Below are positions 44 to 56,141 of a stretch of 64,000 nt of DNA, piece by piece (within the stretch, counting starts at the first letter, position 1; each line of letters starts with the position of its first letter). The notes below the pieces were generated by a model. That model saw only the letters and a program-made list of their open reading frames with translations, had not been told where the DNA came from and did no database searches. A program made the translations under genes and the position numbers. This DNA is from Escherichia virus TH15: the sequence record MT446392.1; one strand, given 5' to 3'.

Positions 44-904
44 ATGAAAAATTATCAAGACTTGATTCAAACTGTATTTGACATTGGCTATCAGACTGAC
101 GACCGCACAGGGACTGGTACTATCGCGACATTTGGCACCAAAGTTGAGTGGGACATGTCTGAAGGCTTCCCTGCAACGACCGTTAAACGTTTGGCATACA
201 AATCTGTGGTTGGTGAGCTTCTGTGGTTCCTGGAAGGTTCTACGAACGTTGAACGTCTTCGTGAAATTACTCATGGCCCTGACTCTGATAAAAAGACTAT
301 CTGGGACCAGAACTTTGAAGCCCAAGGTCGTGCATTAGGTTATGTTGATGGCGAACTGGGTCCAGTATATGGTAAACAGTGGCGCGATTTTGGTGGGGTT
401 GACCAGCTGGTTGAGACCATCGAAAAGGTTAAGAAAGTTCCGACCGACCGTCGTCAGATTGTGTCCGCATGGAACCCGGCTGAACTGAAACAAATGGCTT
501 TGCCTCCTTGTCATCTGCTTTACCAGTTTAACGTACACGATGGTGAACTTGACCTGTTATGGTATCAACGTTCGGTTGATGTATTCCTGGGGCTTCCGTT
601 TGACATTGGTTCTTATGGTACGCTTTTACATATCGTTGCTAAAATGACTAGACTTAAGCCTGGTAAGTTGGTATTCATGGGTGGTAACACGCATATCTAT
701 CTTAACCATATCGAGCAATGCAAAGAAGTTCTTCGTCGTGAACCTAAGACTTTACCAACTCTGAAAATCAATTGGCCAGAGCAATTCCAGCAGTGGGACA
801 CGGAAATGCAGTTATATTGGGTGACTCGTCATATGTCTCCGGGTGATTTTGTTCTGGAAAACTATGAGCCACATCCGACAATCCCAGCACCGATGGCGGT
901 ATAA
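44..904 (+). CDS. td: thymidylate synthase, uninterrupted (no group I intron)
   Basis: 286-aa ORF, same length as T4 Td as recalled; ThyA-type sequence (PPCH..QFNV, DLLWYQRS); ATG at 44. Confidence 0.93.
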   Translation: MKNYQDLIQTVFDIGYQTDDRTGTGTIATFGTKVEWDMSEGFPATTVKRLAYKSVVGELLWFLEGSTNVERLREITHGPDSDKKTIWDQNFEAQGRALGYVDGELGPVYGKQWRDFGGVDQLVETIEKVKKVPTDRRQIVSAWNPAELKQMALPPCHLLYQFNVHDGELDLLWYQRSVDVFLGLPFDIGSYGTLLHIVAKMTRLKPGKLVFMGGNTHIYLNHIEQCKEVLRREPKTLPTLKINWPEQFQQWDTEMQLYWVTRHMSPGDFVLENYEPHPTIPAPMAV

Positions 905-1107
905 TGAATATTCGTATAGTAAACAATAGATACGGCACCCGTGAGGTGCTGTTTGAAAAAATGAATATAAGTCTCGATGAACTGCCTAAAGAGAAAACAA
1001 CGATTTTTGTTCAGGGTAAAGAACTTTATGTTATGCGTGTGATTAAATCATATGAATATCACGATTTAACCCAGCACCAGTCTATCTGGTTTATTGTCGA
1101 GGTCTAA
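904..1107 (+). CDS. hypothetical protein, 67 aa
   Basis: ORF whose ATG overlaps the td stop (TAATG), suggesting translational coupling. Confidence 0.45.
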   Translation: MNIRIVNNRYGTREVLFEKMNISLDELPKEKTTIFVQGKELYVMRVIKSYEYHDLTQHQSIWFIVEV

Positions 1108-1172
1108 TGAAAATTCAAATTGCCGGTATTTTATTTCTGGTCGTAATGGTCGGACTTAACTTCCTACTATGA
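1107..1172 (+). CDS. putative 21-aa hydrophobic micropeptide (MKIQIAGILFLVVMVGLNFLL)
   Basis: ATG overlaps the stop of the 904 ORF and its TGA overlaps the ATG of the 1169 ORF; single predicted TM helix; below the ORF-track cutoff. Confidence 0.3.
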   Translation: MKIQIAGILFLVVMVGLNFLL

Positions 1173-1468
1173 AAGCCTGTCGGGTTGTTAACAAATATCA
1201 ATCCGACTTTGATGTGAATATTCAACGGGGTACCATGTGGGGAAACCCATATAAAGATGGTACCCGAGAAGAAAACATAAAGAACTTTAAAGAATATTTC
1301 ATATCAAAGATTAAATCGGGTGAAATCAAAAGAGAACACCTTGAAACCCTACGCGGAATGCGATTGGCCTGTACATGCAAACCAAAAGCATGCCATGGCG
1401 ATGTTATCGCCCTGGTCGTTAACAAACTTTTCAAAGATACCTTTTCGCTCGAGGATTTGGGAGCATAA
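1169..1468 (+). CDS. DUF4326-like protein
   Basis: 99-aa ORF with GNPY...ACTCKPKACHGDVI motif typical of DUF4326. Confidence 0.55.
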   Translation: MKACRVVNKYQSDFDVNIQRGTMWGNPYKDGTREENIKNFKEYFISKIKSGEIKREHLETLRGMRLACTCKPKACHGDVIALVVNKLFKDTFSLEDLGA

Positions 1469-1527
1469 ATACGATTCCGCTTCAGGGCACTGTGATATAA
1501 TTATTTAAAATTTAATGAGAGGAAATT

Positions 1528-1773
1528 ATGAATTTACGATTTAAACGCCAGACTGGCGAAGTCATTTTTGAAATGCTGCAATTTACCGAACAGGATTTAC
1601 CGGCACCAAATTCTTATATCACTATTGACGGAATCAAATTTCTGGCCAAACGTCATGAACGTGTCTACTGTCATGATTCAGCCGGTGACGTCCAGTCATA
1701 TTTTGACATCACCATCCAGTCAGAAGAAGAATATAATGATGAAATGTCTTCGGAACTGCCAGAGTCAATTTAA
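1528..1773 (+). CDS. hypothetical protein, 81 aa
   Basis: ORF with GAGAGGA RBS 6 nt upstream of ATG. Confidence 0.55.
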   Translation: MNLRFKRQTGEVIFEMLQFTEQDLPAPNSYITIDGIKFLAKRHERVYCHDSAGDVQSYFDITIQSEEEYNDEMSSELPESI

Positions 1774-1806
1774 GGTTCCCAACCCTTTTGAACTATAGAG
1801 GAAAAC

Positions 1807-4062
1807 ATGCAAGTACAAAAAAGTAGTGGTGTCTCTCAAGATTTTGATGGCCAGAAAATTATTAAAGTTCTTTCCTGGTCATGTGAAGGAACTAATATCG
1901 ACCCGTATGAATTATACGAAACAATCAAACCACATCTGCGCGATGGTATGACTACCCGCGATATTCAGACGGTTATCATCAAAGTGTCTGCTGGGCTTAT
2001 TTCGGTCGAAGAACCGGATTATCAATATGTTGCAGCGAAGGCTACGATGTTTGCTCTGCGTAAAGATGTTTATGGGCAATTCGAGCCACGTTCTTTTATT
2101 GACCAGATTTCTTATTGTGTTAATGAAGGCAAATATGACCCGGAACTGTTGTCAAGCTACTCCGCCGAAGAGATTACTTATCTGGAATCTCGTATCAAGC
2201 ACGAACGCGATTTTGACCTGACTTATGCAGGCGCGATGCAGTTGAAAGAGAAATACCTGGTTAAAGATAAAACCACTGGTAAAATCTACGAGACTCCACA
2301 ATTCGCTATCATGGCTATCGGCATGGCACTGTACCAGGATGAACCAACGGACCGTCTGAAGCACATTTGCCGTTTTTATGATGCAGTATCCACAAGACAG
2401 GTTTCGTTGCCCACACCTATCATGGCGGGCGCCAGAACACCCACCAGGCAGTTCAGTTCCTGCGTGGTTATCGAAGCTGCAGACTCCCTGAAGTCAATCA
2501 ATAAGACTGCCAATTCAATCATCGAATATATCAGTAAGCGTGCGGGTATCGGCATCAACGTTGGTATGATTCGTGCTGAAGGTTCGAAAATCGGTATGGG
2601 TGAAGTTCGTCATACTGGTGTTATTCCGTTCTGGAAACATTTCCAAACGGCTGTTAAATCCTGTTCACAAGGTGGAATCCGTGGCGGCGCTGCTACTGCT
2701 TATTATCCTTTATGGCATTTGGAAGTTGAAAATTTACTCGTTCTGAAGAACAACAAGGGCGTTGAAGAAAACCGCATCAGACATATGGACTATGGTGTCC
2801 AGTTGAATAACATGATGATGGAACGTCTGGCTAAGAATGATTACATCACTCTGTTTAGTCCACATGAAGCTGGTGGTGAATTGTATTATTCATATTTTGA
2901 TAACCCGGATAAATTCCGCGAGTTATATGAAGCCTTAGAAAAAGACCCGACAGTTCGTAAGAAACGTATCAAAGCAAAAGACCTGTTCGAATTATTCATG
3001 ACCGAACGTTCCGGCACTGCCCGAGTTTATCCACAGTTCGTTGATAACGTGAATGACTATACTCCGTTCATCCGCGATAAGGCTCCGATTCGTCAATCAA
3101 ACCTTTGTTGTGAAATTGCAATCCCGACTACTGATGTAAACAGCGAAGATGCTGAAATCGGATTGTGCACATTGTCTGCATTTGTTCTGGATAGTTTTGA
3201 CTGGCAGGACCAAGATAAGATTAACGAGCTGGCTGAAGTTCAAGTTCGTGCTCTTGATAATCTGTTGGACTACCAAGGTTATCCGGTTAAAGAAGCTCTG
3301 AAAGCCAAAAAACGTCGCAACTTGGGCGTTGGTGTTACCAACTACGCTGCATGGCTGGCAAGCAATTTCGCTTCCTACGCCGATGCAAACGATTTAACCC
3401 ATGAATTATTTGAGAGATTACAATATGGCCTTATCCGAGCATCCATCAAGCTCGCCAAAGAAAAAGGACCTTGCGAATATTATTCAGACACTCGTTGGGC
3501 TCGAGGCGAATTACCTATCGACTGGTACAATAAAAAGATTGACCAAATCGCAGCTCCAAACTACGTTTGTGACTGGGCGCAGCTGCGGGAAGACCTGGTT
3601 GCACATGGCATCCGTAATAGCACCTTATCTGCGCTCATGCCTTGCGAGTCGAGCAGCCAAGTTTCAAATAGTACCAACGGTATCGAACCTCCGCGTGGTC
3701 CAGTAAGTATTAAGGAAAGTAAAGAAGGTTCCTTTAACCAGGTTGTTCCAAATATCGAGCATAATAAAGGATTGTACGATTACGCATGGGTACTGGCTAA
3801 ACAAGGTAATAAACCTTATCTGACTCAAGTCGCGATTATGTTGAAATGGATTTGTCAGTCAGCATCAGCAAACACTTATTATGACCCGCAGAATTATCCG
3901 AAAGGAAAAGTTCCGATGTCAGTTATGCTTGACGACTTGATGTACGGTTGGTATTATGGAATCAAGAATTTTTACTATCACAATACTCGTGATGGCTCGG
4001 GAACTGACGATTACGAATTGGAAATGCCAAAAGCTGATGATTGCTCGGCATGTAAACTGTAA
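1807..4062 (+). CDS. nrdA: ribonucleotide reductase large subunit
   Basis: 751-aa ORF (T4 NrdA is about 754 aa); RBS GAGGAAAA; position after td. Confidence 0.93.
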   Translation: MQVQKSSGVSQDFDGQKIIKVLSWSCEGTNIDPYELYETIKPHLRDGMTTRDIQTVIIKVSAGLISVEEPDYQYVAAKATMFALRKDVYGQFEPRSFIDQISYCVNEGKYDPELLSSYSAEEITYLESRIKHERDFDLTYAGAMQLKEKYLVKDKTTGKIYETPQFAIMAIGMALYQDEPTDRLKHICRFYDAVSTRQVSLPTPIMAGARTPTRQFSSCVVIEAADSLKSINKTANSIIEYISKRAGIGINVGMIRAEGSKIGMGEVRHTGVIPFWKHFQTAVKSCSQGGIRGGAATAYYPLWHLEVENLLVLKNNKGVEENRIRHMDYGVQLNNMMMERLAKNDYITLFSPHEAGGELYYSYFDNPDKFRELYEALEKDPTVRKKRIKAKDLFELFMTERSGTARVYPQFVDNVNDYTPFIRDKAPIRQSNLCCEIAIPTTDVNSEDAEIGLCTLSAFVLDSFDWQDQDKINELAEVQVRALDNLLDYQGYPVKEALKAKKRRNLGVGVTNYAAWLASNFASYADANDLTHELFERLQYGLIRASIKLAKEKGPCEYYSDTRWARGELPIDWYNKKIDQIAAPNYVCDWAQLREDLVAHGIRNSTLSALMPCESSSQVSNSTNGIEPPRGPVSIKESKEGSFNQVVPNIEHNKGLYDYAWVLAKQGNKPYLTQVAIMLKWICQSASANTYYDPQNYPKGKVPMSVMLDDLMYGWYYGIKNFYYHNTRDGSGTDDYELEMPKADDCSACKL

Positions 4063-26314: not shown

Positions 26315-27437
26315 TTTTAACCTTCGGTGGTTCTTCAACTTCGATAGGCTTACCATTGGTAAACATATAGAGGTTTGTAATTGATGTATTGTTACTCACT
26401 TCATGAATAACTTCGTCTACGTAAAAATCATATTTGAATTGGTTCTTAGGGTCAAAGAAATTTATCTTATCACCCGGGGTTAATTCAAAGTTCCCGTACG
26501 TTTTGCAATGTGCGTAACCGTCATACTGAGACATGGTTATTAATCGTTGTGCTTCCTCGAAACCATTTCGGTACGTGTAATCCGAATAGCCTCCGGAACG
26601 AGATACCAGAATACTGTTTTGACCTTCCCCAAAAGTTATTCTGGTTGCATTCTTGTCAAGGAATGAATGTGCATACACGGTTGCGTTTTCGTATGGTTTT
26701 CTTGTGTGTTGGTTTGCCTTTGTTAACCATTCAAAATCGAAGGCTAACGGAGCATCGAGGTTTTGCACGAATTGGCCAATCAATCGAGGTTCACCCACCA
26801 CAAAATTAATTGGCTCTTGGGCGGTTAACCATTCATAATCCTGGATACTTATGCCATCGATATCTTCCCATACAAAAACAAATTTATCGGTTTCTACGGC
26901 CAGGCCAACTTCCCTTATGAATTCCATATATTGGTTCATCGAATCACACCATGGAACATTAGGAGCATAAACGTTTATGCCGTTTATCGGAGGAGCAAGT
27001 AATGGTCGGTCCTGATAAATTACCCCGGTCATTTCGACTAATGTTTCTTGTACACTCGGGTAAAACATACGACTAAATTTCAGGTCTTCAATTTCGTGAA
27101 TCGGCGCCAGTTGAATTGTAATTATGTTATCACCCTTTGAATCCACAGAAACCGCAAAGTGCTTGCTTCCGTATATCCTGGATTGGGTTCGGTCAGAGTT
27201 GGCATTCTTAACAGAAATCTGAATAATTTGTTCACCATTCATTTTTGTATGTAAATTCTTTGTGTCGTAGAATTGCAACAGCCCTTCGTTTCTTCCATAA
27301 AGGGAATCACGCATGGTTAACGTTGTAAATGTTGCAGCCAGTTCTACAAAACGGTGTTCAAGCCAGGCATCATAATCTTCATAAAGGCGTATGCTGATAT
27401 TAGGAAAGCCTTCGCGCTGCATAGATTTAGCTGTCAT
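26268..27437 (-). CDS. 27: baseplate hub subunit
   Basis: 389-aa ORF (T4 gp27 391 aa); synteny. Confidence 0.88.
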
Positions 27438-31880: not shown

Positions 31881-32561
31881 ATGATTGATAAGAACTATAT
31901 TGAGGAAATTCGTGTCCTCGAGAAAAAAGAAGCCAAAGAAAAATTAGCTGAATATGCATCATCGCTTGGTGTTGATGTTAAGAAAACAAAAACTTTCGAT
32001 AATATGTTGATTGACCTGGAAGCAGGCCTTAAGGCGTTTGCTGACATGCCTATGCCAGATGATAATGAAGGCCTGAGCATTACAGACCTTATCGATGCCG
32101 ATGATGAATTGTCTGGTGCTAAATTTGATGGTGATGATTCAGCCAAAGAAGAAGCCAAGCTCTTATTTGATGCTCCAGAAGCACCGGTTGAAGTAGTCGA
32201 AGTTACCCAGGAAGTTGTTCCTGAACCAGAAGTTAAACTCGTTGAAATTGAAGTACCATTTGTCTCCAAAGACTTTGAAGAAGCTGTTGCTCAAATCATC
32301 GAAGCTGAAACTCTTAAATTTACACTACCTAAAAACTTTAGCCCTAACCTGCTTATGTTGGGCAAAGCTCCTGGATACTGCACTCTCCCTTGGTGGATTT
32401 ACCAGTGGATTAAAGAGACTCCAGATTGGAAAGAACGTCCTACCTCTTTTGCTCATGCAAGCGCGCATCAAACTCTGTTTAGTCTGATTTATTATATCAA
32501 TCGCGATGGTTCGATTCTTATTCGCGAAACTCGCAACTCTTCTTTTGTTCGTTTAAATTAA
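31881..32561 (+). CDS. inh: Inh-like protein (inhibitor of prohead protease), acidic
   Basis: 226-aa ORF located between uvsW and hoc as inh is in T4; no motif verification. Confidence 0.55.
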   Translation: MIDKNYIEEIRVLEKKEAKEKLAEYASSLGVDVKKTKTFDNMLIDLEAGLKAFADMPMPDDNEGLSITDLIDADDELSGAKFDGDDSAKEEAKLLFDAPEAPVEVVEVTQEVVPEPEVKLVEIEVPFVSKDFEEAVAQIIEAETLKFTLPKNFSPNLLMLGKAPGYCTLPWWIYQWIKETPDWKERPTSFAHASAHQTLFSLIYYINRDGSILIRETRNSSFVRLN

Positions 32562-34629: not shown

Positions 34630-35949
34630 TTAAGATGCAAATATTATAGGTATACGCCCATGATTATTATTTTTAATAACCTGAATATAGATGTCAGAAT
34701 CAACATAATCATTTAAAGACCCGGTTGGAAGCATTTTTAAAGTATACCAAAAACCTGTGGCTTTATCTATAATTTCTGCAGTTGAACCTTCTCGACACTT
34801 ATCAAAAGAAATGTTATCCCATGTTACCCATGAGCTAGTCAGGTTTAAATTATTATCTGACTTGTTTTCTAAGCCAACCGCGTCATAGTTTGTGGTTCTA
34901 CGATAAGAATATGAAGCTGGCAAAGAGTCATTAAATCTTTTGACACTGATATCAAATGTGTTTTTAGTTGTGACTTTATATTTCATAGAAATATTAGTAT
35001 CAGCTAGTTTGACCGTGGCTTCAGCATTAGGAGAAGACATTGAATTAAAGCTTAAAATAATTTCCCAATATTTCTTAGGTTCAAATGGTTTAAGCTTGTC
35101 ATATAATTCCTCTAATTGAGATTCTGTCAAGCTGCCAATATCAAGAGCAGGGCCTTGAGGGCCTTGTGCACCGTCTATACCATTTTTACCAGGGTCGCCT
35201 TTTAATCCTTGCAGGCCTTGTGGTCCTTGAGGGCCATCTGTTCCAGCAGGACCTTGGTCACCTTTATCTCCTTTATCACCCTTGTCTCCTTTTGCGCCAG
35301 CCGATGCCATTATGGCCCAATCGTCATTTGACGGCAACGGCGGAATACCGGTATGAGTCGTAAGACTAAAATAGGTAGCTCCTTGGTACGCTACGGCGTC
35401 ATTTGGTACATACTCAATAGATATATCATATTCACCTTTCCATATTAATCCTGTTGCTCCTGCGGGGCCCGGGTCGCCTTTAGGACCATCTAGACCATTT
35501 TTACCCGGGTCGCCTTTAGGACCTTGAATACCTTGAATACCTTGAGGGCCGGTAGCCCCATCAATGCCGTTAGTTCCATCAGCCCCTTTAGGACCTTGAA
35601 TACCAGGTGCACCATCCATCCCGTGTACACCTGCCAGGCCTTGGGGACCTTGTAGACCATCTATTCCAGCAGGACCTTGTGGTCCTGGGTCACCTTTTAA
35701 TCCTTGTGGGCCTTGAATGCCCTGGATACCTTGGTCGCCTTTTGGGCCTACTGCGCCATCAGAAATTCCTATAAATGTCTTTGCTTCTTCTGAAGTAGCT
35801 TTAGTTAAAAATTCTAAACTCCAATCGGTAGTTGAACTTGTCGTAATAAGGTCTTCTACTTGTTTTGTATTACCTGCCTCTGGATTTCTAATGGTTTTGC
35901 CAGAAAAGTTACCTCTACCATCATGCCCAAACAATCTTTCGTCAGCCAT
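34630..35949 (-). CDS. collagen-like repeat protein with C-terminal globular domain
   Basis: 439-aa ORF; two uninterrupted Gly-X-Y runs (33 and 16 triplets); late promoter and RBS upstream. Confidence 0.75.
35149..35298 (-). repeat. collagen Gly-X-Y coding repeat, block 2 (16 triplets incl. GDKGDKGDK)
   Basis: Same periodicity; encodes [19 protein letters not shown]... Confidence 0.8.
35449..35748 (-). repeat. collagen Gly-X-Y coding repeat, block 1 (33 triplets)
   Basis: Periodic GGN-NNN-NNN codons visible as CCNNNNNNN periodicity on + strand. Confidence 0.8.
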
Positions 35950-53127: not shown

Positions 53128-54065
53128 TAGCCCACCAATATAGGAGTCGGTGCATCCAGCAGGTCAAGTTCTTCGCGGAGACGTTCTTTTTCCATACGAG
53201 CTTCTTCGATTAAACGAACACCATCGACCGTAACTCCACCTGGCATCATCATCCCTTGGTGTTTAGCCAATACGTTGCCGTTAACTTCCTTAACAAGCGC
53301 CGTGGCATAGTCTTTCACCCAACGGTTGTTATATGCACCATCTTGAAGCCCAAGGTCCTCGCCAGCTCTCATACCGCTTATTCTGCGTGCCGGGTTATCC
53401 CACTGTGCACCGGCATTCCACGGATTATCACAATCAGCCGAGGTAAAACCATAACCAGCTGTATTGCCAACCATTGAATCCACACCGTTATATGATTTGG
53501 TATAAACTTCAATTACAATCACATCCCCTTGACGGAAGTTGCCCATAATTTTAAGTTGTTCGGTATCATCGTTATACCAGTAATCCGGAAGCGGAACCAT
53601 CAGGTCTTGCATCATCGAACGATATTGCATAAGCTGTGTAAAATAACCAAGGTCTGCACCAAAGGCATTTGGACCAAAGCTATTACATGAGCTACCCATC
53701 CCACCGTTAATCCCGGCAAGTCCCAGAACGAAATCTGTAAACCATGGATATGTGGCTTGCCCGTCCATTGAAGTTAATGAACCGACGTTAGTACGAATAA
53801 TCTGCGTTACTGCAAAAATATTACGTCCTTTTAAATCGAAAACACCATCGCGGAATTTCTGTTGTGAAACTTCATCATGACCGATATAAAAAGCCTGATA
53901 ACCTTTGTTATATCCATTATAATGATATTCACCGTATAATTCTAATGCACGCTGGATGCAATCATAGACTTGGTCGGTCGTAACTTCGATATTCGTGATT
54001 GGAGCACCAAGACGACGAAGGATTGCATCTTTTAATTGTTTCGGGTTGTATGATTCAGTTGCCAT
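53127..54065 (-). CDS. 13: neck protein
   Basis: 312-aa ORF (T4 gp13 309 aa); late promoter TATAAATA on - strand at 54085-54092. Confidence 0.85.
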
Positions 54066-54116: not shown

Positions 54117-56141
54117 TTATGGTCCAACAGTCACGAATGTAGACAAAAGAACCCATGCATTATCAACAAGCACGTAAGGGAGACCATCAGCCGCAGGAGC
54201 GACAGGAGGCCTTTTGGTGAGCTCTGTTTCCAAGGCTGATACTTTACCTTCCAAAGTAGTTATCTTCGTCTCGGCTGCATCCAGGCGACCAGGGAGCGGA
54301 GTTACTGTACCTTCAAGAGTTGTCACACGATCAGTTAACGGTGTAATTTTTGCAGTATCGAGTTTAATTGCAGTGATTTCCCCTTCCGCCGAAGTCATTC
54401 GACCGGTCAAGGTTACCAAACCGCCTTTGTTTGTTTCGATATTTGCTTTAATGGTAACCAGCTCACCTTCAACATTGCTAACGTCTAAAGCTAAAGCAGT
54501 GACATCATCATCGGTCGTAGATGTTTTAGTTTCCAATGCGGTTATTTTACCATCAACAGTCGTATCCTTCGTTTCTAATGCAGTAATTCGACCATCTTGT
54601 TCCGTATCTTTATTTTGCAGAGCGAGAACATCTGCCTTAATATTCGTAACGGAAGTGTTCAATGCACCATAACGAGTATCTAACGAACTGATTGCCGTAT
54701 CATTATCATCGACACGACCAGTTAATGTTGTTACGCGTCCATCAGTTGTTACCAATGAAGCTTTAACTGCATCAACTTCGGTTGTGGAATCGATAATTTC
54801 AGACCAGGCACCTTGCTTGCGACCGTATAACTTGTTGTCCAATGGCGCATCGTTCAACTTGGATGCCATCAACATATCCAAGTTAATTACGACTGGAAGA
54901 ACACCACGTTCAGCCACAGTAGCACCGTTAGGGTTAGTCCCGTTCATCTGGCTAGTTAAAGTCAAAATAGAACCTTTCATACCAGTGCTATTTGTACCAA
55001 TTTCAGCCTGCACATCCTGAAGACCTGATGCAGTTTCATTAGCCAGCGTAGTGGTTGCATTCAACTTATACGTGATGGTGTTTGGCTCCGGAGATTGCTC
55101 TGTACCGATTCTCTGAGAAAGCCATGCAGTGGTCCCGCGTAAACCGGAGCTTGAATCCTGACCAACAACAGCCTGCAATCCATTAACATCCGAGCGCAAA
55201 GCACTGATTCGACCATTAATTGTTAATGGTTCCAGAGCGGTGCCGATATCAGCTTCGACCTTAGTAAGTCTTGGTTTGATATTCGCAATATCTGTTTCAT
55301 TGACCGAAACACGCCCACCAAGATTTTCAACGCGAGTTGTAATTGCAAGCCCGGTACCAAAACCGATAGCTTCTTGAATATTGGTAATATCTTCGTCAAT
55401 TTCGACTACTTTGTCATCAAGAGTATTCAGTCGAACAAATACAGCCGGTTTACCTACTGCTAAAGTCGACTCACCCAATTCTTCGCGAATTTTAATTACT
55501 TTTACGTTAAGAGAACCAACATCAGAATCATGGTAATTATCCTCAAGAGTCTTAATACGAACTCCATGGGCAACAATAGCCGAACTGTTATCGAGGATAC
55601 GACGTTTCATGCCTTTTGACGGATTACCAATAACCTGTAGACCATTTATATCCTGGTCAACATACTGACCCAATTCATTTTTAATCCATACAAGGTCATT
55701 ACGAACTGTGCGATAATACGAATCGGTTAACGGGTCATAAACACCAACATCTTCTTTTAACTTTGTAAGACCTTCGGATGTTTCGCTTGACAGCAATTCG
55801 GTATTAAATTGACGTTCATCAAGGTCAAGAATATCCGTACGGTTTTTTTCAATTTGCTTAACAACTTCCGTGTTAGTTGTTATATCCAAAGCTTCCTGGA
55901 TATTATTGACGTTATCAATAATTTCATTGATTTTTTCTTTAGATGTATTTGAGTTGTCGTCGAGTGTATCTACGTTTATTTGAACGCCAACCGCGGCGGC
56001 GTTCAAATTACCATCATGACCATATTTGGTACTGGCCGCAGTCATACAATCGCCGTTTTGTATCCAACGAATTCTCTGTTGACCTTCGTCTGGAATACCG
56101 ATGCTATACGGCAGTTCTTTGAGACTGAGTTTATTAATCAT
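54117..56141 (-). CDS. wac: fibritin (whisker / neck fibre), extended coiled coil
   Basis: 674-aa ORF; heptad-repeat-rich; C-terminal foldon-like ...PYVLVDNAWVLLSTFV; T4 fibritin is 487 aa. Confidence 0.85.
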   Translation of the reverse strand: MINKLSLKELPYSIGIPDEGQQRIRWIQNGDCMTAASTKYGHDGNLNAAAVGVQINVDTLDDNSNTSKEKINEIIDNVNNIQEALDITTNTEVVKQIEKNRTDILDLDERQFNTELLSSETSEGLTKLKEDVGVYDPLTDSYYRTVRNDLVWIKNELGQYVDQDINGLQVIGNPSKGMKRRILDNSSAIVAHGVRIKTLEDNYHDSDVGSLNVKVIKIREELGESTLAVGKPAVFVRLNTLDDKVVEIDEDITNIQEAIGFGTGLAITTRVENLGGRVSVNETDIANIKPRLTKVEADIGTALEPLTINGRISALRSDVNGLQAVVGQDSSSGLRGTTAWLSQRIGTEQSPEPNTITYKLNATTTLANETASGLQDVQAEIGTNSTGMKGSILTLTSQMNGTNPNGATVAERGVLPVVINLDMLMASKLNDAPLDNKLYGRKQGAWSEIIDSTTEVDAVKASLVTTDGRVTTLTGRVDDNDTAISSLDTRYGALNTSVTNIKADVLALQNKDTEQDGRITALETKDTTVDGKITALETKTSTTDDDVTALALDVSNVEGELVTIKANIETNKGGLVTLTGRMTSAEGEITAIKLDTAKITPLTDRVTTLEGTVTPLPGRLDAAETKITTLEGKVSALETELTKRPPVAPAADGLPYVLVDNAWVLLSTFVTVGP

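Follow-up and report, generated by a model that had tools for sequence, protein, structure and literature searches.

Between the genes for thymidylate synthase (td) and the large subunit of ribonucleotide reductase (nrdA), Escherichia virus TH15 carries an open reading frame (ORF) of 21 codons. It was analysed in a stretch of 64 000 nucleotides from this phage (record MT446392.1), referred to below as the window, in which the micropeptide gene MKIQIAGILFLVVMVGLNFLL occupies positions 1107..1172 of the + strand and ends with the stop codon TGA (1170-1172). We estimate, with a probability of about 0.78, that this is a real gene, that the peptide is its selected product and that the peptide is embedded in the membrane. 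Judged from sequence comparisons, the ORF is a protein-coding gene whose product itself, beyond the mere act of translation, is under purifying selection, and its family is confined, as far as sampled, to the T4-like enterobacterial phages of the genera Gaprivervirus, Dhakavirus and Gelderlandvirus. The family is new and narrow; in kind it joins the well-known small membrane proteins with a single pass that annotation misses, and it is not a new kind of system.

The window belongs to Gaprivervirus (Tevenvirinae) and is 98.5 per cent identical to phage VR26 over positions 700..1900. The td-nrdA intervals of relatives with differing architectures were extracted (numbered L001 and onwards) and read. 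Of the 28 genomes, which represent three genera, 27 have the small ORF intact, and in the 28th it is interrupted by Ns of the assembly; its ATG, length and hydrophobic character are likewise kept in 27 of the 28. Its length is 21 codons in the genomes of 10 Gaprivervirus and 12 Dhakavirus phages, and a homologue of 25 or 36 codons is present in five Gelderlandvirus genomes. The small ORF is always placed directly 3' of td, or of a cassette if one has been inserted there, and without exception the preceding stop codon overlaps its ATG. A tblastn search with the 21-mer found 81 phage records (Gaprivervirus and Dhakavirus) with one match each, and every match with annotation adjoins td. The Gaprivervirus-type peptide is found in 34 of these records, close to the number with a Gaprivervirus-type td (31 at a coverage of at least 80%). 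The first-pass annotation had proposed translation of the frame, as opposed to a role as spacer, and had named conservation in related phages as the check. This check is clearly positive, and the proposal is further supported by the coding periodicity and the low ratio of non-synonymous to synonymous substitutions (dN/dS) described below.

The case for translation that can be made from the window alone is moderate. Of its 410 ATG-initiated ORFs of 15-40 codons, six have a mean Kyte-Doolittle hydropathy of at least 1.8, and the presence of five such ORFs besides the micropeptide in a genome with 41% GC could suggest a functionless frame, open by chance in a spacer. The five are located at 53877..53939 (+), 34644..34712 (-), 55502..55567 (-), 26667..26726 (+) and 32506..32556 (+). 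We considered whether they form a paralogous family and rejected it: both of the two that were checked sit inside long genes, in antisense or in an alternative frame, and seem to have arisen by chance from the T-rich composition. Among the hydrophobic short ORFs checked, the micropeptide ORF alone has exactly the extent of an intergenic gap. Once relatives are compared, it stands well outside what chance would give, and its syntenic and intact presence in 27 of 28 genomes from three genera effectively refutes a chance frame.

Fourteen distinct nucleotide versions from Gaprivervirus and Dhakavirus were compared for variation by codon position. The variable sites number 10, 3 and 14 at positions 1, 2 and 3, respectively (P = 9e-4 for three or fewer at position 2). 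Between the two genera, the proportions of synonymous and non-synonymous differences (pS and pN) are 0.67 and 0.15, with a median dN/dS of 0.11. The approximately 14 replacements in codons 3-21 all involve apolar or small residues, against 56 per cent expected by chance (simple product of about 3e-4). Identity between the genera is 71-76% for the peptide and 67-69% for the enzyme Td. Residues M1, I3, Q4, I5, F10, L11, M14, G16, L17, N18 and L21 are invariant in Gaprivervirus and Dhakavirus, and K2 is replaced, by N, in SP18 only.

The third lineage, Gelderlandvirus, was found in a td-anchored sweep of IMG/VR and comprises the Salmonella phages STML-198, STP4-a, SEA1, S16 and CGG4-1. The order here is td-ATGA-MTAMNKLTI[A/T]LIIFL[I/V]I[I/M]ISLNLFL. 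When the peptide is aligned with the others in a fixed register anchored at the C-terminus, nine of 20 positions match (shuffle P = 1.5e-4 and 3.7e-4), and the common pattern is K...I...FL...(G/S)LNxxL-stop: K, I5, F10, L11, L17, N18 and L21 are kept, and G16 is replaced by S. In S16 and CGG4-1, a cassette of 75 aa lies between td and the small ORF, which starts 11 codons earlier, again with an ATGA overlap. In these two phages (L098 and L099, 683..793), the ORF has 36 codons and an extra N-terminus, MITRFVNDTGS; this N-terminus is similar to the first residues of the MITKF... ORF, a cassette located after td in L033, and looks like a recombination scar of the insertion of the 75-aa cassette. 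We also observed that td of CGG4-1 and STP4-a (L099 and L101) is split by an intron of the type carrying the I-TevI homing endonuclease, as in T4; that of the window is uninterrupted.

These comparisons bear on the proposal that the 66 nt act as a nucleic-acid element in cis (a promoter, an RNA structure or a recombination site), with the frame being incidental. It would be consistent with the position of the cassette insertions, exactly at both ends of the 66 nt, and with a motif following the last coupled ORF that we take to be similar to a middle promoter. Against it, the variation has a periodicity of three bases with third positions the most variable, and the Gelderlandvirus version is just 53% identical in nucleotides, yet the character of the peptide and its end-motif persist. 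RNA folding of the region is no better than that of shuffled sequences (z = +1.14), consensus scans detected no promoter- or terminator-like site inside the ORF, and Rfam gave no match for the region at E<=1. A role in cis is thus very improbable. A regulatory leader peptide was rejected on similar grounds: there is no stable structure, and the ORF is kept where no downstream gene is coupled to it.

In the window, the ORF is part of a chain of overlapping genes headed by td (44..904; this and all the following features are on the + strand). The td gene codes for 286 aa, is annotated as such in VR26 and other relatives, and ends with TAA at 902-904. The last A of this codon is the first base of the ATG of a 67-aa ORF (ORF67; 904..1107), giving a TAATG junction at 902..906. 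ORF67 ends with TAA at 1105-1107 and overlaps the micropeptide ATG by 1 nt in a second TAATG junction (1105..1109). The tetramer GAGG at 1099..1102, within the end of ORF67 and 4 nt 5' of the micropeptide ATG, resembles a Shine-Dalgarno (SD) sequence and may serve as one; where the micropeptide follows td directly, in VR7 and Dhakavirus, there are only weak G-rich matches. At the other end, the ATG of a 99-aa ORF with a DUF4326 domain (1169..1468) overlaps the micropeptide TGA, the two ORFs sharing 4 nt of the form ATGA (1169..1172), and the 14 nt upstream of this ATG (CTTAACTTCCTACT) contain no purine-rich SD. The last ORF of the interval (ORF81, 81 aa; 1528..1773) has its own SD (GAGAGGAAATT ATG) and lies outside the overlapping chain. 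The interval is bounded downstream by nrdA (1807..4062), annotated as such in relatives.

Stop and start codons overlap at all three junctions of the window and likewise in all the relatives, as expected for a coupled gene chain. The first-pass annotation had located td, the 67-aa ORF, the 21-codon ORF and the DUF4326 ORF correctly, in both coordinates and sequences. It had called the chain ATGA-coupled, which is accurate for the micropeptide/DUF4326 junction; the other two are TAATG. It had also taken the perfect overlaps as an argument for translation. The overlaps are indeed present, and in a greedy gene map of the window ATGA or TAATG overlaps occur at 24 of 68 same-strand gene junctions, about one-third; as overlaps are this common in the genome, they prove little about translation when taken alone.

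The micropeptide ORF is the sole constant element of the td-nrdA interval; ORF67, DUF4326 and ORF81 are variable. The arrangement td-ORF67-micropeptide-DUF4326-ORF81-nrdA is found in the window, VR26 and DK-13. The interval is the same in VR20 without ORF81, in PSD2001 without ORF67 and in TH54 without both, and in VR7 and SP18 it is reduced to td-micropeptide-nrdA with no other ORF between. ORF67 is missing in PSD2001, TH54, VR7 and SP18, ORF81 in VR20, TH54, VR7 and SP18, and the DUF4326 cassette in VR7, SP18 and the Dhakavirus phages IME08 and MX01. VR7 has the order td-TAATG-micropeptide-TAA, and the sequence 3' of this TAA (atacgattccgc...) is that found 3' of the DUF4326 stop in the window. 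Dhakavirus genomes were matched by blastn with a 116-nt region at 70-76% identity; their td ends in ATGA with MKIQI[A/I][G/C]TLFLVIM[V/I]GLN[L/F][V/I]L, exactly 21 codons. The small ORF is followed by TAATG-NrdA.1 in JS98, Bp7, MN04, dhaeg and 04086, and by TAA and an intergenic region in IME08, MX01, Esco_phi_B-01 and VR5. The cassette joins fall exactly on the start and stop codons of the micropeptide. In VR7, SP18, IME08 and MX01, where all the flanking cassettes are missing, the micropeptide is kept although it bridges nothing, and an intergenic region precedes nrdA.

It could be argued that only the translation of the ORF matters, carrying ribosomes to DUF4326 or shielding the mRNA from Rho or RNases, and that the peptide is an irrelevant by-product. 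The lack of an SD before DUF4326, the overlap of its ATG with the TGA of the small ORF and the frequency of overlap coupling, which is the house style of this genome, would fit such a relay. Any sense codons would then serve, yet there is hardly any change at codon position 2, the replacements are all apolar and dN/dS is close to 0.1; the length of 21 codons is invariant across two genera, and both length and sequence are kept where nothing is coupled downstream (VR7, SP18, IME08, MX01 and VR5). We therefore consider it improbable that the ORF is a relay and nothing else. Since DUF4326 has no SD and overlaps the small ORF, the latter would nevertheless also act as a relay in the window, DUF4326 presumably depending on the coupling: ribosomes stopping at UGA (1170-1172) would restart at AUG (1169-1171) and so supply translation to DUF4326.

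A different reading of the locus is found in GenBank, where the DUF4326 frame of Dhakavirus, open upstream into td, is annotated as an N-terminally extended 'nrdA.1' (JS98 and IME08) that overlaps the micropeptide. A related proposal is a -1 frameshift fusion that anchors Td, given that the micropeptide is read, at every junction, in the -1 frame of the ORF before it. The extended frame is closed by stops in all the Gaprivervirus genomes, and in none of the 49 pairs is either of the remaining two frames open in both genera; in IME08 it yields a 55-aa ORF without the DUF4326 domain. As for a fusion, no junction has a slippery heptamer, the ATG, needless for a fusion, is conserved in every genome, and the partner would change wherever ORF67 or the 75-aa cassette is inserted. 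Both variants are scarcely credible. The 'nrdA.1' of JS98 (EF469154; L008 464..859) starts at an ATG inside td and runs in the wrong frame across the micropeptide region, and that of IME08 (HM071924; L010 437..604) consists of the wrong-frame 55-aa ORF alone; both are likely mis-annotations. The same is likely for VR26_247 of VR26 (KP007362), the homologue of ORF67 (L001 562..708), for which an internal ATG was used instead of the td-coupled one at L001 505.

With its conserved ATG and its 21 codons (fewer than 50), the micropeptide gene is a short ORF that is initiated independently and selected at the protein level. After the initiator (fMet/Met), the sequence of the peptide is KIQIAGILFLVVMVGLNFLL. 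An N-terminal Met-Lys is followed by an apolar segment of 17-19 residues (I3-L21 is 19 residues), and Lys2 is the sole charged residue. The mean Kyte-Doolittle hydropathy is 2.12 for the whole peptide and 2.68 for the last 17 residues, above the classical threshold of about 1.6. The peptide thus combines a bilayer-spanning apolar segment with a one-sided positive charge, as do small single-pass inner-membrane proteins, and the single transmembrane helix claimed in the first-pass annotation is predicted from hydropathy. Two other kinds of hydrophobic product were considered and rejected. A signal peptide or lipoprotein precursor does not agree with a stop codon placed directly after the apolar segment, and there is no lipobox. 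A holin would be expected in the late lysis cassette; the gene is located between td and nrdA, in the early/middle region of nucleotide metabolism, and the peptide ends in ...GLNFLL without a charged tail.

We propose that ribosomes ending ORF67, or td where ORF67 is missing, re-initiate at the overlapping AUG, with the GAGG at 1099-1102 assisting in the window. A nascent chain is shielded in the ribosome tunnel over about 35 aa (PMC12648545); with 21 residues, the peptide is shorter than the exit tunnel and would be released inside it. Because release would come before the chain emerges from the ribosome, its insertion into the inner membrane would be post-translational. Such a route is known for the 27-aa YohP of Escherichia coli, which is inserted post-translationally via the signal recognition particle (SRP) with SecYEG or YidC (PMC7549839). 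By the positive-inside rule, Lys2 is expected to be cytoplasmic, with Met-Lys on that side and the C-terminus at the periplasmic face. Within the bilayer, the helix would most probably act by contact with another helix through residue 16 (G/S), the invariant L17-N18 and F10-L11: an invariant L-N following a small residue near the periplasmic end, together with the fixed length, suggests a specific helix packing.

What the peptide does in the membrane can be proposed by analogy. It may bind and modulate an inner-membrane protein of the host or the phage, a possibility that we hold tentatively, at somewhat less than even odds. It is doubtful that it self-associates into a leaky oligomer with a depolarizing effect of the IbsC/TisB type, and the rest of the probability falls to other modes of action. 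T4-type phages require an energized membrane and ATP for DNA synthesis early in infection. The helix packing suggested above leads us to prefer a modulator to a depolarizer, and the need for an energized cell while td is expressed counts against depolarization. A more specific version, rather unlikely in our opinion, is that of a td-linked effector that docks in the membrane on one specific inner-membrane protein of the host and is produced by re-initiation in fixed proportion to Td. Candidate targets for docking are, among others, a transporter of nucleosides or ions, a protease (FtsH or another) and a membrane-bound defence sensor.

The depolarizing activity deserves separate consideration as the basis of a toxin of the IbsC/ShoB/TisB kind, acting in early host shut-down or as a superinfection block. 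In length, near-total hydrophobicity and a possibly oligomerizing polar residue, the peptide resembles the type I toxins IbsC (19 aa, almost all of it transmembrane helix), ShoB, TisB and DinQ, and many IbsC-like peptides depolarize the inner membrane (PMC12648545). The conserved Asn inside the apolar segment fits this proposal. Polar residues such as Asn in apolar segments drive the oligomerization of helices. Unlike the genes of the IbsC relatives, the micropeptide gene lies in the sense strand of a polycistronic early phage operon, and it would be co-translated with td at the time when the energized membrane is needed. Its sequence is unrelated to any toxin family, and a DNA-level search of E. 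coli genomes gave no homologue. There is no minus-strand promoter-like site near 1107-1172 and no Rfam RNA antitoxin, a weak test that consists of consensus scans only, so that no antisense RNA partner was detected. We consider a toxin unlikely and retain the modulator as the preferred function.

Several known small membrane proteins are comparable. E. coli MgtS, AcrZ and KdpF are intramembrane regulatory micropeptides. Like the micropeptide, YohP (27 aa) and YkgR (33 aa) of the same species are one-helix stand-alone ORFs with a very short polar N-terminal cap (PMC7549839, PMC12648545), too short for co-translational targeting by SRP and so expected to be inserted post-translationally. The micropeptide differs from them in being phage-encoded, overlap-coupled to an enzyme gene and even shorter (21 aa), with a predicted membrane location and no homology. 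Gp11 of Staphylococcus phage PhiNM1 is an early small membrane protein that binds MurG and DivIC (PMC11237401); it likewise comes from an early-region phage gene and has a host membrane target, such as we presume here, but is unrelated in sequence, host and phage family. The eukaryotic regulins, sarcolipin among them (PMC8396278), are comparable by analogy, without homology, in the way we propose for the micropeptide to act, namely as one helix that docks on a larger membrane protein. The analogy extends to MgtS, AcrZ and KdpF.

Some observations weigh against the peptide being a selected membrane protein with a function in infection. T4 has no small hydrophobic ORF at this locus: its td is followed by 20 nt, nrdA.2 and then nrdA.1. 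Among 80 td-anchored IMG/VR loci, the small-ORF family is found in three genera only, and the other T4-like genera sampled are without it; where an ORF is coupled to the td stop in other T4-like loci, it is of the DUF5496, DUF4326 or another type. Being missing in T4 and most other T4-like genera, the gene is not required for a life cycle of the T4 type. In Dhakavirus and VR7-type genomes, any SD for the coupling of td to the micropeptide is weak, and the yield may be low. The dN/dS of 0.11 is a noisy value, as 21 codons are short, and synonymous sites are near saturation between the genera. We found neither ribosome profiling (Ribo-seq) nor proteomic or genetic work on these phages in the literature, and the functional assignment comes from composition and analogy alone. 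Searches for publications on ribosome profiling or small proteins of T4 gave nothing on the td-micropeptide locus.

The family is absent from the databases and records searched. Profile searches with the micropeptide gave no match in Pfam at E<=1 and none in NCBIfam at E<=10, and the best PHROG match had E=0.26. Seven variants, including the 36-aa form of S16, were looked up as exact sequences in a collection of 15 billion proteins and none was present, and the ORF is unannotated in every annotated GenBank record fetched. Gene callers drop ORFs below about 30 codons, which explains its absence from both the records and the protein collection. A scan of IMG/VR with a degenerate pattern recovered the known genomes and 10 chance matches, either without ATG or with a very short frame, and a metagenome scan added one further Gaprivervirus contig only. 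No match to the ORF was found at the DNA level in E. coli genomes.

The neighbouring ORFs belong to known families. The 99-aa ORF, described as DUF4326-like in the first-pass annotation, matches Pfam DUF4326 (PF14216) with E=7e-22 (78.3 bits, cut-off 25), and its product is 68% identical to NrdA.1 of T4. DUF4326 proteins have been proposed to be rhodanese-phosphatase-like processors of ADP-ribose derivatives (PMC9503650). ORF67 is without a Pfam match and is assigned to phrog_2458 (T4 NrdA.2-like; E=5.6e-19). ORF81, also T4 NrdA.2-like, matches both Pfam DUF5496 (E=1.4e-8; 35.1 bits, cut-off 27) and phrog_2458 (E=4.6e-27), and the two ORFs are distant paralogues with 26% identity (pairwise E=5e-5). 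The micropeptide occurs both with and without DUF4326, and nothing here ties it functionally to Td or to DUF4326.

ORF67, DUF4326 and ORF81 (904..1773) are optional cassettes: close relatives within Gaprivervirus have or lack each of them independently of the others, and the cassette edges coincide exactly with stop and start codons. The comparison with JS98 suggests that the DUF4326 cassette was recently exchanged between Gaprivervirus and Dhakavirus, since its product is 92% identical to JS98 NrdA.1 (window 1169..1468 versus L008 566..856), as compared with about 69% for the flanking Td and 76% for the micropeptide. The 5' ends of ORF67 and the micropeptide gene are alike (ATGAAWATTC; MNIRI and MKIQI), and this common end could be a microhomology used for recombination. 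The sequence after the last coupled ORF also varies. At 1479..1501 of the window, GCTTCA is separated by 11 nt from TATAAT (1496-1501), and in IME08-type phages (L010/L011, about 575..610), TGCTTAA, 12 nt and TAGAAT are found directly 3' of the micropeptide stop; both resemble a MotA-dependent middle promoter of T4. VR7 and SP18 (L006/L007, about 585..625) have instead a GC-rich hairpin of 9 bp and a T-run before nrdA.

Modular cassette shuffling has reportedly been described in the hyperplastic regions of T4-type genomes (Comeau 2007 and Arbiol 2010 are said to treat it). The td-nrdA interval resembles these regions in the presence or absence of small ORF cassettes among close relatives. There the edges of the shuffling cassettes are promoter-stem-loop elements; here they are the TAATG and ATGA overlaps of a constant micro-gene. 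The locus is a clean natural example of cassette swaps exactly at overlapping stop and start codons.

In kind, the finding is no surprise: hydrophobic proteins of small size are familiar from bacteria and have been bulk-predicted for phages, and micro-genes of this sort are to be expected in phage genomes. It indicates that conserved genes invisible to annotation exist even in the heavily studied T4-like phages, and that some E. coli and Salmonella phages relevant to therapy (JS98, S16 and relatives) thus carry a predicted membrane-active peptide. A gene that is conserved like the neighbouring enzyme gene and survives all the cassette turnover around it presumably confers a selectable benefit, and it is tractable for study. 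If the peptide were a docking effector, it would represent a new family of 'regulin-like' phage micropeptides and the first function for a T4-type gene of fewer than 30 codons.

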